DNA from: Deinococcus sp.
GTDB lineage: Bacteria > Deinococcota > Deinococci > Deinococcales > Deinococcaceae
Reading direction: 5' to 3'
Length of the DNA stretch: 64,000 nt
NCBI RefSeq assembly: GCF_025362455.1
Contig: NZ_JANYGJ010000095.1
Span: 254-64,253, forward strand
The notes under the pieces were generated by a model. That model was not told the origin of the DNA. It saw nothing but the letters and a program-made list of their open reading frames with translations, and ran no database searches. Numbering within the stretch: the stretch's first letter is position 1; each line of letters begins with the position of its first letter. Below are positions 7,727 through 56,620 of this stretch, piece after piece. The position numbers were made by a program, and so were the translations under genes.

Positions 7727-7740
7727 CTAGAATATATACA
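7727..7740 (-). other. Polar motif copy TGTATATATTCTAG (left orientation)
   Basis: CTAGAATATATACA on the + strand; exact 14-mer shared with 32876 and 56607. Confidence 0.8.
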
Positions 7741-7957
7741 ACAAGTCAAGTATGGATCAAGTATGGACAGAGTGGAGCAGGCCGAGTCAGATCAGGACCT
7801 TCGGATCAGACCTTGCAACTTAAGTTGGTGCGCCGCCGCTAAGCCACCTGGCCAGCCGTCCGCTGCGCCGCCTGGCCGACGCGCCGAGTGCCTCGCCCGG
7901 CGCACCATACTCCTACCAGCCGGAAACCGCTCCCTCCGCTGGCAGGAGAAAGCCCCC

Positions 7958-8140
7958 ATGATCACCGATTTCCATACCTGCGAGTGGGCGGCCCAGGCCC
8001 GCATCGACAGCCTGCGCGACGAGGCGAGTGTGCGCAGAACGCTGCGCCTGCTGAACGCCGCCAAGGCCCCCAGCCTGATCGTGCGCCTCTGGCAGCGCCT
8101 GACCGGCAAGGCCCACCGCGACCAGCCCGCCCCCGCCTGA
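7958..8140 (+). CDS. Small hypothetical protein (60 aa)
   Basis: AGGAG RBS at 7944-7948, then MITDFHTCEWAAQARIDSLRDEA... Confidence 0.65.
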   Translation: MITDFHTCEWAAQARIDSLRDEASVRRTLRLLNAAKAPSLIVRLWQRLTGKAHRDQPAPA

Positions 8141-8218
8141 TGTTCCGCACTGCCCACCCACACGCGGCGAACCCCACCACCCAGGGTTCGCCGCTCGCTT
8201 GCGTTCACATTTACAGGC

Positions 8219-9562
8219 TTACGGGTACATCCGCGTCAGCATCCGGGGAAAGGCGACCGCTTCCCGAATGTGGTCGATGCCGCTGATCCAGGCCACGAAG
8301 CGCTCCAGGCCCATGCCGAAGCCCGCGTGCGGCACGCTGCCGAATCTCCGCAGGTCCAGATACCACTCGAAGGGCTCTAACGGCAGGCCCTGCTCCTCGA
8401 TTCTGTTTTTCAGCAGGTGGTAATCGTGGATGCGCTGCGAGCCGCCGATGATCTCGCCGTAGCCTTCGGGCGCGATCATGTCGTCGCACAGCGCCACGCG
8501 GGGATCGAGTGGGTCCGGCTGCATGTAGAAGGCCTTGATGGCCGCCGGGTAGCGCTCGATCATCACGGGCCGGTCGAACTGGGAACCCACGATGGTCTCG
8601 TGCGGCGCCCCCAGATCCTCGCCCCACGCCACCGGCTGCGTATCCGGTGCCACGTTCGGCGGCAGGTCGCCCGACTCGATCCGGCTGCGGATGATCTCCA
8701 GCGCCTCGGTGTAGGTCACGCGGGGAAAGTGGCCTGACGCAGCCGGGCGCAGCTTATCCAGATCGCGGCCCAGAATGCCCAGCTCCTCGGCGCAGGTCTC
8801 CAGCACCCGGCGCACCACGAAGGCCACCATGTCTTCCTGAAGCTGCATGTTGGCGGCGTGGTCGCTGGGCGCCACCTCCGGCTCGATCATCCAGAATTCG
8901 AGCAGATGCCGCCGTGTTTTACTCTTCTCCGCCCGGAAGGTCGGCCCGAAGGTGTAGACCTTGCCGAAGGCCAGCGCCCCGGCCTCGGCGTGCAGTTGCC
9001 CGGTCTGAGAGAGGTAGGCGCTATTTTCGCCGAACAGATCGATCTCGAACAGCTCGGTGGTGTCCTCGGCGGCGTTGGTAGTAAACAGCGGCGAGTCAAA
9101 GCGGATAAACCCGCGCCCGTGAAAAAAGTCGGCCAGCCCCCGCTGAACGGCGTCCCGCAGCCGCAGCACCGCCCAGGGACGGCGGTGGCGCAACCACAGG
9201 TGCCGGTGGTCTTGCAAAAAGTCGATGCCGTGTTCCTTGGGCGTGATCGGGTACTCGCCGGAGCCGCCCACCACCTCGACGTGGCTCAGCGACAACTCGA
9301 CCCCGCCGGGCGCCCGCTCGTCGGCCCGCACCGTGCCAGTCAACTTTAGGCTGCTTTCCTGGGTCAGGTGTCTGGCGGCCTCGAAGACGTCCTCGCTGAC
9401 GTCGTTTTTGCTCAGCACGCCCTGTACGAAGCCGCTGCCGTCGCGCAGCTTGAGAAATATCAGCTTGCCCTTGCCGGATTTGTCGGTCAGCCAGGCGCTG
9501 AGGGTCACGTCCTGGCCGATGTGCTCACTGAGCTTGGAAATCGGAGTCTGGGTGGAAGCCAT
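8219..9562 (-). CDS. asnS: Asparaginyl-tRNA synthetase
   Basis: OB-fold [40 protein letters not shown] and GFGMGLER motifs; TATACT 7 nt before ATG 9562. Confidence 0.95.
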
Positions 9563-9822
9563 GCCCGACAGTATAGAGAGGGCCAGTCCAGCGGGTGCGG
9601 TGTAGAAGAGGGGGGAGGCCAGCCTAGCGGCACCGGGCTGTGCCTGAGCGACCAAGGCACACTGGCCGCCGCCACACTCAGCCTGGCCTGAGTCCCCGGC
9701 GCCCGGCCCTGAGCGGGGTGAGCGCCACCCGGAGCTGAACGACCATTCTCAACACTCCAATCTCGACCTCTCGATCACAAATAGTCCTACTCGTGATTTC
9801 TTTCGCTGACTCACCCCACAAA

Positions 9823-54771: not shown

Positions 54772-54823
54772 AGCAGGGGTGGTTGGGGCGGGCCAGCGGC
54801 GGCGTTTCACGTGAGCTGGACGG

Positions 54824-56002
54824 GTGAGTTCCGTCGCCGTGCGCGTCGCCGTATATCATCCTGGGCAGCGCCGCTTCGCCTGGCGAGAGATGGTGCTGGG
54901 CGACATTCACCGCGCCCCCTGGCAACTTAGCGCCGCGCTGGGCCTGAACGCCGACTTGCTGCATGACGGCGGGCTGATGTTCGGCGCCCGGAATGCACTG
55001 TTGAGCTTCGAGGCCCGCTCGAAGGCGCTGCCGCCCGGCTGGATGTGGACGAATGAGCCGCCACTACCGCTTCCGGACGCCCGGCCCTGGCAACGGCCCG
55101 GCTGGTTCGCGGGCGCCTGGGCGCGGTTGGGAGCACATTCGGCGACGGGTTCGGCCCGGCTCATCAGCACCTCCGACCTCGGCGCGGTGCTGAGCGTGGG
55201 CGAGGAGGCAGCGCAGGTGTTTCTGAAAGTCGGCGCCGGGCGCGAGGCAGCCGTCACGGCGGCGCTGTGGGCCACGCAACCGAGATGGCTTCCAGCCGTG
55301 TTGAGCACCGACCTGGAGCGCGGCGAGATCATCACTCGCAGCGGTGGGCAGACGCTGGAGAAGGTGGGCGAGTGGCGGGCCTGGACCGGGGCGGCGGCGT
55401 TGCTGGCGAAGTATCACCGCTCGGCGGGCGTGCCGGACGCGGCGCATCACCGCTTTGCAGACCTGCCGGAGCGGGGCGAGGCGCTGCTGCGCGATGAGGC
55501 GGCCTTGAGCGGCTGGGGGCTGAGTGACGCCAATATCAAAGAGCTGGCCGCCGCCCTGCCGGAGTTGAGGCGGCAACACCGGCTGGTAAGCGCCCTGGGA
55601 CTCCCAGACGGCCCGGTCCACGGCGACAGCCACGGGATGAACGCCTTGTGGGACGGTCAACAGGCCCGCTGGTTCGACTGGAGTGAAGCGGGCGTGGCGC
55701 ATCCATTCACCGATATCGGCTGGCTGTTCTCCCATTCGGCAGACCGGACCTGGCCGATTTCGGCGGCGGTGCCCGACCTCCGCGCCCGCCTGGCCGACGT
55801 GTATCTCAGCACTCTGGGGATTCCCGGCGCCCACACCGAACTGGACAGCGCCGAGACGCTGGCACTGTGGCACCGGGCGGTGGTCTACGACGCCCGTTTC
55901 CGGGCCTGGCCGGAGCCGAGGCCAATGTACGTCCGCTTTTACCTCCGGTGGCTGCTGGGTTCGCTGCGGTCACGTCCGGGCGGGATACCATCAGCGCCAT
56001 GA
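54824..56002 (+). CDS. Aminoglycoside-phosphotransferase/choline-kinase-like protein
   Basis: VFLK, VHGDSHGMN and FDWSE..VAHP motifs. Confidence 0.8.
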   Translation: MSSVAVRVAVYHPGQRRFAWREMVLGDIHRAPWQLSAALGLNADLLHDGGLMFGARNALLSFEARSKALPPGWMWTNEPPLPLPDARPWQRPGWFAGAWARLGAHSATGSARLISTSDLGAVLSVGEEAAQVFLKVGAGREAAVTAALWATQPRWLPAVLSTDLERGEIITRSGGQTLEKVGEWRAWTGAAALLAKYHRSAGVPDAAHHRFADLPERGEALLRDEAALSGWGLSDANIKELAAALPELRRQHRLVSALGLPDGPVHGDSHGMNALWDGQQARWFDWSEAGVAHPFTDIGWLFSHSADRTWPISAAVPDLRARLADVYLSTLGIPGAHTELDSAETLALWHRAVVYDARFRAWPEPRPMYVRFYLRWLLGSLRSRPGGIPSAP

Positions 56003-56445
56003 CCTCCCTGTATCTGCTCATCACGGCGCTGATGGCGCTGGCGTTGCTGGGGCTGCTGCTGCGGCCCGGCTCGGTGCGTCCATTGACGCTGTGGCTGTTC
56101 GCGGCGCTGCTGCCGGTGCTGGTCGCCGTCACGGCGGCGCTGCTGAGTCAGCAAAGCGCCCAGGCGGCGCTGGTGGGCTTCGATCCGCAAGTCAGGAACC
56201 GGGGGCTGGGCTGGCGTGATGCGGCGGGCGCCGAGAACACCGCCACCGTGGCGCTGGGTGGCCTGGACGCCGCCTGCGTGGTGCGGGCCAGCGCACGCGG
56301 CGGCACCTACCGCCTGAGCAGCTCGACGCTGTTCGTGCCCCGTGACGTGCAGCTCATCGGCCCCTGGCCCTCCAGTGCCGAGGCCGAGGCGCTGATGGTC
56401 AGCGGCCAGCAGGGCTGCCGGAGACTCAGCGGCAAAGAGAACTGA
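55999..56445 (+). CDS. Hypothetical membrane protein (2 N-terminal TM, two Cys)
   Basis: ATGA overlap with the upstream gene; hydrophobic N-terminus. Confidence 0.65.
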   Translation: MTSLYLLITALMALALLGLLLRPGSVRPLTLWLFAALLPVLVAVTAALLSQQSAQAALVGFDPQVRNRGLGWRDAAGAENTATVALGGLDAACVVRASARGGTYRLSSSTLFVPRDVQLIGPWPSSAEAEALMVSGQQGCRRLSGKEN

Positions 56446-56606
56446 GCGGCAGGGAGAACTGAGTGGCAGGGAGAACTGAGCGTCAAACCGGGCGGCTGGA
56501 CGCCAGGTTCAGGAGGGCTCAATGAACGCCGCGAGCAATGAGTGGAATGCGGCGATCAAGGTCTTCAGACACCTGCATGCCCGCTGCCTATCTATCTCCG
56601 TCTCGT

Positions 56607-56620
56607 TGTATATATTCTAG
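56607..56620 (+). other. Polar motif copy TGTATATATTCTAG (right orientation)
   Basis: Exact 14-mer in the intergenic gap between convergent genes. Confidence 0.8.

Follow-up and report, generated by a model that had tools for sequence, protein, structure and literature searches.

To our knowledge, replication fork traps occur in only two unrelated systems, Tus–Ter and RTP–Ter, each restricted to narrow bacterial groups, and their purpose is still debated. In Escherichia coli, Ter sites of about 23 bp form an array that spans hundreds of kb, and one of them, TerB, overlaps the tus promoter. The RTP site of Bacillus subtilis is a double site of about 30 bp for two dimers, and the innermost pair of sites lies very close together, adjoining the terminator gene. 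Here, we describe a 13-mer, TTGTATATATTCT, that occurs as two opposed groups of asymmetric sites in a 64,000-nt stretch of DNA from Deinococcus sp. (RefSeq assembly GCF_025362455.1, contig NZ_JANYGJ010000095.1, positions 254 to 64,253; hereafter “the window”). Such arrays are found at the replication terminus of the chromosome and of most secondary replicons, are confined there, and bear no fixed relation to genes. In our leading but tentative reading, which we hold with somewhat less than even confidence, TTGTATATATTCT would be the one-orientation binding site of a sequence-specific protein, arranged in two opposed groups that bracket the terminus and most likely acting as a one-way barrier, that is, a fork trap.

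The Deinococcus arrays share with Tus–Ter an arrangement in which asymmetric sites form nested groups of opposite orientation on the two sides of the terminus and dif, the presence of sites on plasmids, and the overlap of a site with the promoter of the gene encoding the candidate binder. They are much tighter, however (30–70 kb), and the site is shorter (13 bp), unrelated to Ter in sequence, and unaccompanied by a Tus homologue. With RTP–Ter, they share opposed polar sites near the terminus, whereas the 13-mer (type-1 site) is a single element and no RTP homologue scored above the cut-off. A second, type-2 motif described below, with three TTCAC elements, looks nearer to the double-site design.

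Other terminus systems offer further comparisons. FtsK-orienting polar sequences (KOPS) are 8-mers that occur in hundreds of copies along whole replichores. Like KOPS and SRS, the type-1 motif is polar and inverts at dif, but it is present in only 4 to 16 copies per genome, all in the terminus locus. This low copy number and confinement exclude a KOPS-type role in guiding FtsK, which was one of the options raised in an initial annotation of the window; the wider claim made there, of a polar terminus-organizing site undescribed in Deinococcus, was upheld. The matS sites of MatP are palindromic and lack polarity, in contrast to the asymmetry and strict polarity of the 13-mer; no search for MatP itself was made. 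In a passage of PMC11894783 that cites Karaboja et al. 2021, XerD bound at XDS sites is said to unload SMC at the B. subtilis terminus. XDS resemble the present sites in being several and terminus restricted, in their link to the Xer family, and in requiring no recombination chemistry. They differ in that the 13-mer does not look like a half of the resident dif-like sites and in that the candidate binder would be a dedicated dead paralogue, not XerD.

Polar 13-bp sites in the window

The window represents contig C65 of a 272-contig, 3.72-Mb assembly (G000; G numbers denote genomes and C numbers contigs). The initial annotation had reported an 11-mer core, GTATATATTCT, in opposite orientations on either side of a dif candidate, and a scan of the window reproduced the exact copies at 7729, 17864, and 24422 (minus strand) and at 32877, 43709, and 56608 (plus strand), as well as a one-mismatch copy at 27326 (plus strand). 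These seven matches with at most one mismatch compare with 0.01 expected from dinucleotide shuffles of the window. The switch in polarity does enclose the dif candidate, a 28-mer at 26141–26168, together with a recombinase gene at 26189–27244.

Alignment of 49 copies from five genomes showed that the conserved unit is TTGTATATATTCT, that is, the core extended by TT on its 5′ side (T at −2 in 39/49 and at −1 in 45/49 copies). The flanks beyond these 13 bp are not conserved, and the motif is therefore a discrete site rather than the end of a larger repeat. The 14-mer that the initial annotation had found common to three window copies, TGTATATATTCTAG, is indeed present in them, but its additional AG is not general among the 49 copies, the general extension being the 5′ TT. 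The elements of the array are as follows, with matches scored against TTGTATATATTCT:

7729..7741, minus strand: L3, 13/13; 47 nt past the stop of an aspartokinase gene (6059–7681, plus strand)
10398..10410, minus strand: possible degenerate site AAATATATATTCC, 9/13; in the spacer between two minus-strand genes
17864..17876, minus strand: L2, core exact, 11/13; between genes for a GFO/IDH/MocA oxidoreductase and a HAD hydrolase, 117 nt upstream of the HAD gene
24422..24434, minus strand: L1, core exact, 11/13; about 60 nt upstream of hisS
26141..26168, plus strand: dif-like 11-6-11 site with an ATAA-N6-TTAT core, at the center of the array
26189..27244, plus strand: Xer-like tyrosine recombinase gene, 20 nt past the dif-like site; complete set of catalytic residues (R, K, H-x-x-R, H, and Y)
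27324..27336, plus strand: R0, GTGTATATATTCG, 11/13; within the 3′ tail of lnt
32875..32887, plus strand: R1, 12/13; 16 nt past the tpiA stop; the gene ahead is convergent, with its 3′ end toward the site
43707..43719, plus strand: R2, 13/13; 11 nt upstream of the ileS ATG; orthologous to the site at 681,174 in G013
56606..56618, plus strand: R3, 13/13; mnmE, which is convergent, has its 3′ end 29 nt away

The near match previously proposed at 10398 stands in part. It adjoins a block whose counterpart in G013 borders an exact site (G013:654,579), of which we take it to be the orthologue, but it carries two mismatches in the 11-mer and retains just 9/13 of the full site. For R0, G013 has an exact site at the corresponding block edge.

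Assembly-wide, nine exact cores are present, six of which lie in the 68.6-kb contig, all within 50 kb. The remaining three occur singly on contigs C56, C214, and C247. On C56 (783/2137) and C247 (8601/8773), the copies form pairs, minus then plus at up to two mismatches, with a degenerate plus-strand partner 0.2 to 1.4 kb to the right. For the copy at C214:10457, a partner was undetectable within its 17-kb contig; this copy and C247:8601, both outside the window, have 20 nt in common (the 11-mer plus AAAAGCGCC). At L1, the site and an adjacent half copy make up a 7-6-7 palindrome, AGAATAT-N6-ATATTCT (24422–24441), seen at no site of the other genomes examined.

Mirror-image arrays across the Deinococcaceae

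Scanning the genus with the exact word gave many copies in five genomes only, grouped in each with minus-strand copies to the left of plus-strand copies. We then used a relaxed pattern, TT[G/A]TATATATTC, on 251 genomes of the phylum and found arrays in 21 genomes from three GTDB genera of the Deinococcaceae. These comprise about 49 loci in which every minus-strand copy lies to the left of every plus-strand copy, and one ambiguous locus (G092:C4), whose copies are separated by 354 kb on a contig that may be linear or circular. A reversed control pattern gave approximately zero matches in the same genomes, and Thermaceae and other families showed only stray single matches or matches equalled by the control. 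Nearly every motif-bearing replicon has one locus. When one to two mismatches were allowed, a correctly ordered partner appeared for each seeming singleton in the loci fetched from the other four genomes, and 400 kb sampled from the G008 chromosome contained no type-1 copy. A genome-wide scan had been proposed at the outset as the test that could refute the idea; the copies turned out to be confined to one locus per replicon, minus before plus, and not randomly oriented.

Chromosomes carry nested copies, two to four per side, spanning 30 to 70 kb, whereas plasmids carry a single pair, 0.13 to 7 kb apart. The short plasmid pairs enclose AT-rich, non-coding DNA (GC 0.40–0.53), and neither a dif site nor any other motif common to these pairs was found in it; the DNA is merely AT-rich. 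Motif-bearing organisms with names include Deinococcus sp. KNUC1210 (G045), D. ruber, D. carri, D. phoenicis, and D. detaillensis.

Position at the replication terminus

In seven closed chromosomes (G008, G013, G045, G004, G151, G163, and G253), the array lies 0.4 to 3.6% of the chromosome length from the antipode of dnaA. Our terminus assignment relies on these antipodes in closed relatives and not on local GC skew, which we dropped as a marker because the sign in the window is origin-like and G008 has no usable skew; antipodes of dnaA, RepA, and ParA were used instead. For 12 secondary replicons, the pair was located 0.9 to 21% of the replicon length from the antipode of RepA (median about 6%, with 0 to 50% expected for uniform placement), and the positions of ParA/ParB agree with the RepA antipodes. 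An example is the circular plasmid NZ_CP092192.1 of strain KNUC1210 (268,139 bp), in which the pair lies at 242.3/245.8 kb and its antipode, 110.0 kb, falls at ParA (109.1 kb) and near RepA (115.9–117.3 kb). At 10 short-pair plasmid loci, the skew of the left flank is positive in 10/10 and that of the right flank negative in 9/10 cases, which is the polarity of a terminus. We place the array at the replication terminus, both on chromosomes and on most of the secondary replicons.

The dif-like 28-mer of the window recurs at the polarity switch of G013 and G163 (one mismatch) and of G151 (four mismatches). A second dif-like type, CCGWTGATAA-N6-TTATCAWCGG, is present in G017 and G253, and contig C3 of G013 has a related TGATAA-N6-TTATCA site. 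Together with the window's own genome, these are the arrays with a central dif-like 11-6-11 site, usually accompanied by an Xer-like gene within the array; a recognizable dif-like site was not found within the arrays of G008, G045, and G024. A 2026 study of D. radiodurans could identify neither polarized KOPS nor a canonical dif (PMC13342612), and FtsK of this species is functional, as found in work that used E. coli dif and KOPS (PMC9764985).

The 13-mer resembles neither arm of the two candidate dif types predicted from sequence. The likeness to the left arm plus spacer of B. subtilis dif that had been pointed out for the window copies found no support; the resident dif-like sites look different. 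A role as a dif core site was also rejected, as the 13-mer is a single asymmetric element present several times per replicon, has no two inverted arms, and coexists with separate dif-like sites. The idea of a half-dif was set aside as well, given that the palindrome at L1 is unique to the window's genome and that the 13-mer is unlike the arms of the dif-like sites.

A second, unrelated polar motif

The type-2 motif came out of a de novo search in G021 and G053 for AT-rich words whose orientation switches at the antipode of dnaA. It is an element of about 40 bp (TTCACG-N10-ATCGTGAA-N3-WTTCAC) unrelated to type 1. Its arrays in these closed genomes (G021:C1:167049-222925 and G053:C1:1559939-1617882) are both at the dnaA antipode and both centered on a CCGWTGATAA-N6-TTATCAWCGG dif-like site. 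The pattern ATCGTGAANNNWTTCAC was found in 44 of 61 Deinococcus genomes, mostly in three to seven copies, with zero matches for the control pattern. In most genomes listed, the copies occupy a single contig in the order plus-strand copies, then minus-strand copies, exceptions being an overlapping copy in G020 and a distant stray in G048. Genomes with both motifs (KNUC1210, D. ruber, D. carri, D. phoenicis, and G017) have the type-2 copies nearer the center, inside those of type 1; the lineage of the window has type 1 only. Since two unrelated motifs share one architecture, we argue that the architecture itself is selected. Among the papers listed by literature searches with the core word, its reverse complement, and Ter sites in Deinococcus, none describes either motif in this genus.

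Relation to genes and rearrangements

Among 57 sites with a called neighbor, 24 face the start of a co-oriented gene and 33 a convergent gene, whose 3′ end is often 0 to 30 nt away; a co-oriented start lies within 150 nt of the site in 17/57. These counts bear out the earlier statement that positions are not fixed relative to genes. In the window, the neighbors are genes for aspartokinase, a class II aminoacyl-tRNA synthetase, and the HAD hydrolase, and hisS, tpiA, rho/ileS, and mnmE; in general, the adjacent genes are unrelated housekeeping genes that differ between species. A promoter or operator with a fixed relation to a gene was rejected on the basis of the 24 versus 33 split and the variable distances, with the pseudo-recombinase gene described below (3–4 nt) as the exception. 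Downstream of the respective sites (17750–17860; 24363–24385), TAGACT, a leaderless-type promoter element, precedes the ATG of the HAD gene and of hisS by 6 to 7 nt, and that of the HAD gene sits in five tandem copies of a 13-nt unit. Most sites are flanked by short tandem duplications.

Site positions are conserved between species only in part, whereas the mirror order is always kept. At the G013 junctions orthologous to those of L1, L2/R1, L3, and R3, no degenerate sites are left, which indicates that sites turn over. In the comparison of the window with G013, each of the four internal synteny breakpoints falls in an intergenic region that bears a site, which would occur by chance in about 1 in 1000 cases:

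10369/10533: breakpoint in the synteny comparison
17738/21256: breakpoint in the synteny comparison
27221/27248: breakpoint in the synteny comparison
32855/33445: breakpoint in the synteny comparison

Among the rearrangements, the central ~12 kb is inverted and one block has crossed the center; polarity relative to the center was retained after each of them. The coincidence of breakpoints with sites suggests that the sites are fragile or recombinogenic. In metagenome contigs from four runs, no joint was found at the sites; contigs covering L2, L1, R0, and R1 run straight through, and no inversion polymorphism was seen. Terminal inverted repeats of a miniature inverted-repeat transposable element or an insertion sequence were rejected as an explanation, as similarity ends at 13 bp, the pairs have no common motif, and the nests enclose housekeeping genes.

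A reversed GC-skew island

Between positions 2000 and 58000 of the window, GC skew is negative to the left of the center and positive to the right, with the most extreme 20-kb skews of the genome. The skew thus runs from minus to plus, which is the sign of an origin rather than a terminus. In G013, global skew is weak and normal (positive at 300–605 kb, negative from 705 kb to 2.2 Mb), whereas inside the nest it is reversed and stronger (left, −0.05; right, +0.03 to +0.04). The same island is present in G163, G004, and G253, and in G163 and G253 it is centered on the dif-like site:

G013, contig C1, 625–700 kb: skew island
G163, contig C1, 530–578 kb: skew island
G004, contig C1, 1885–1965 kb: skew island
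G253, contig C4, 1467–1550 kb: skew island
G021 and G053: skew islands at the termini

When loci were aligned on the outermost site, the skew of the outward strand was +0.04 to +0.08 in the nest and approximately zero more than 10 kb outside it. At third codon positions, skew shifts by about ±0.08 with the side of the array, whichever strand the genes are on, which rules out gene orientation as the cause. A KOPS-like cause was likewise rejected, as the octamers that show skew are G-rich words of a generic kind (such as GGCGGCGG) and do not make up a single motif. The sign of the island is that of forks moving outward from dif. Because ordinary converging forks cannot give this sign on both sides, we tentatively infer recombination-dependent or post-fusion forks.

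A dead tyrosine-recombinase homologue as candidate binder

Tyrosine recombinases are the sole gene family that recurs beside the sites. One subfamily, of 283 to 304 residues, has lost its catalytic residues: in 14 of 14 members examined, the first Arg is replaced by T, the Lys hairpin is lost, the second His is replaced by L, and the nucleophilic Tyr by W, I, or L. The full two-domain recombinase fold is retained in a predicted structure (pLDDT 86), for which the best Protein Data Bank matches are XerA, IntI, Tn1549 Int, Cre, and XerH; the fold search also lists Phi3T SroF bound to DNA. Named matches in a large protein collection are all from Deinococcus and annotated as integrase or XerC. The homologue is WP_239051381.1 in KNUC1210 and WP_189091730.1 in D. 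ruber. Genes for the dead homologue include the following:

L013:4184-5095, minus strand: near type-1 sites
L009:4425-5336, minus strand: near type-1 sites
L005:4085-4939, minus strand: near type-1 sites
L012:2135-2995, minus strand: near type-1 sites
Contig C268 of the window's own genome, about 21914–22810, minus strand: outside the window

In at least 10 genomes, the ATG of this gene lies 3 to 4 nt past a site that belongs to a pair on a plasmid; the gene reads away from this pair and is apparently leaderless. We take this to be the geometry of autoregulation, as for tus and TerB. Distant members of the pseudo-recombinase family have a different word, TCTATATACTG, at the same promoter position. 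In one genome, this word forms inverted pairs about 125 bp apart by the gene on several contigs (G057:C12:57674/57800 and G057:C15:238212/238344), and a further pair is found at G016:C99:1192/1313.

A binder encoded within the window was considered and rejected, as the open reading frames scanned encode housekeeping-type domains, save for the recombinase and a few without a Pfam match. The dead recombinase homologue is the best candidate for a protein that would bind the 13-mer. The repressor MrpR (YopR) of SPbeta reportedly has a tyrosine-recombinase fold without recombinase activity. The candidate resembles MrpR and SroF of SPbeta-like phages in its fold, its lost catalytic residues, and the site at its own promoter, but it is no phage repressor: its gene lies beside the terminus pair of a megaplasmid, and sites are found on the chromosome and most other replicons.

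Discussion

If the array acts as a fork trap, forks arriving from the origin would meet the TCT end of each site and pass, whereas forks moving outward from the center of the terminus would meet the TTG end and be stopped. Such outward forks could be overshooting ones or forks restarted by recombination at or near dif; they are plausible because the skew island has the sign of outward forks and fades about 10 kb past the outermost sites. We infer the binding of a protein, the fork as the machine that would be stopped, and the non-permissive face. The unrelated type-2 motif in equally mirrored terminus arrays is counted as convergence that supports the fork-barrier reading. An extended version, which we consider rather unlikely as a whole, would make this the third independently evolved fork trap, with at least two lineage-specific site families (the 13-mer and the ~40-bp type 2) and a dead, autoregulated Xer-type terminator, serving every replicon and containing the outward forks that wrote the skew island.

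Several observations weigh against a fork trap. Mirror symmetry of this kind would equally be expected for FtsK, SMC, or any other machine that converges on the terminus. At 13 bp, the site is short beside the Ter sites of Tus (about 23 bp) and RTP (about 30 bp). No match to Tus (PF05472) was found at E ≤ 0.1 in G000, G008, G013, G045, and G024, with a control search matching only E. coli, and RTP (PF02334) gave one sub-threshold match, in G013 (21.8 bits, below the 26.7-bit cut-off) and far from any site. The dead homologue was not found in G004, G017, and G151, which do bear arrays. Contig C4 of G013, which encodes two RepA homologues, has no type-1 copy, so that “every replicon” is too strong, and the pairs on G045:C10 and G008:C4 are poorly antipodal to RepA. 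Finally, the skew island is also present in G021 and G053, both of which lack the type-1 motif, and absent in G008, G045, and G024; it is therefore not a specific pointer to type-1 sites.

The sites could instead mark the boundary of the terminus for a non-replicative machine, at which SMC–ScpAB would stop or be unloaded, or FtsK would stop or be activated beside the Xer/dif reaction, with an Xer-like binder that is possibly the dead homologue. We assign this an appreciable but clearly minor chance. It predicts the mirror symmetry and terminus position equally well, the arrays are centered on dif-like sites, and genes for tyrosine recombinases or pseudo-recombinases lie in or beside them far above chance. 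The part of PMC11894783 on XerD and XDS provides a precedent for SMC unloading in B. subtilis, and D. radiodurans has a functional FtsK with native KOPS and dif unidentified (PMC13342612, PMC9764985). However, the 13-mer is unlike either dif-like arm and hence probably no half-dif of the XDS kind, and the outward-fork skew island is left unaccounted for. Moreover, we know of no report of strict polarity or nesting for XDS, which we count against a rival of that type.

The remaining readings are unlikely. That the sites are operators or −10-like elements of a small regulon under the dead homologue, as a repressor of the MrpR/YopR type, with the terminus position secondary, has a small probability in our view. 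The TATATT within the motif, the leaderless-promoter geometry of the site 3 to 4 nt before the pseudo-recombinase ATG in at least 10 genomes, the 17/57 sites with a co-oriented start within 150 nt, and DNA-bound Phi3T SroF among the fold-search matches would all fit, but 33/57 sites face the 3′ end of a convergent gene, the neighbors are unrelated housekeeping genes that differ by species, and one locus per replicon, the antipodal position, and the strict mirror order would go unexplained. Even less probable is that the sites are targets of a tyrosine recombinase, with exchange between minus- and plus-strand copies inverting the terminus segment. Inverted repeats with recombinase genes close by, and the 4/4 breakpoints relative to G013 in site-bearing intergenic regions, would be expected on this basis; yet the 13-mer is single and asymmetric, without a two-arm core, and essential genes (aminoacyl-tRNA synthetase genes and rho) lie between same-side copies, which are direct repeats, and would be lost upon exchange between these copies. 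Nor do the metagenome contigs of the four runs show a joint at the sites, plasmid loci that are syntenic between D. ruber and KNUC1210 do not differ in orientation, and the protein encoded nearest many sites lacks the nucleophilic tyrosine. That AT-rich, promoter-like words have clustered by chance in a genome rich in GC has a negligible probability. Such words are limited to intergenic DNA, so that shuffles of the whole window understate the expectation, but seven copies against 0.01 expected, a reversed control near zero in 251 genomes, and the same word, order, and position in 21 genomes have already refuted this reading.

The terminus of the multipartite, polyploid genomes of Deinococcus has so far been a blank. 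The sites described here provide testable terminus landmarks for its replicons, together with two candidate dif types and one candidate binding protein, and the skew island adds a signature in base composition suggestive of forks that move outward at the terminus. According to the literature searched, a fork-trap device, if this is what the arrays are, has never before been described in Deinococcus.

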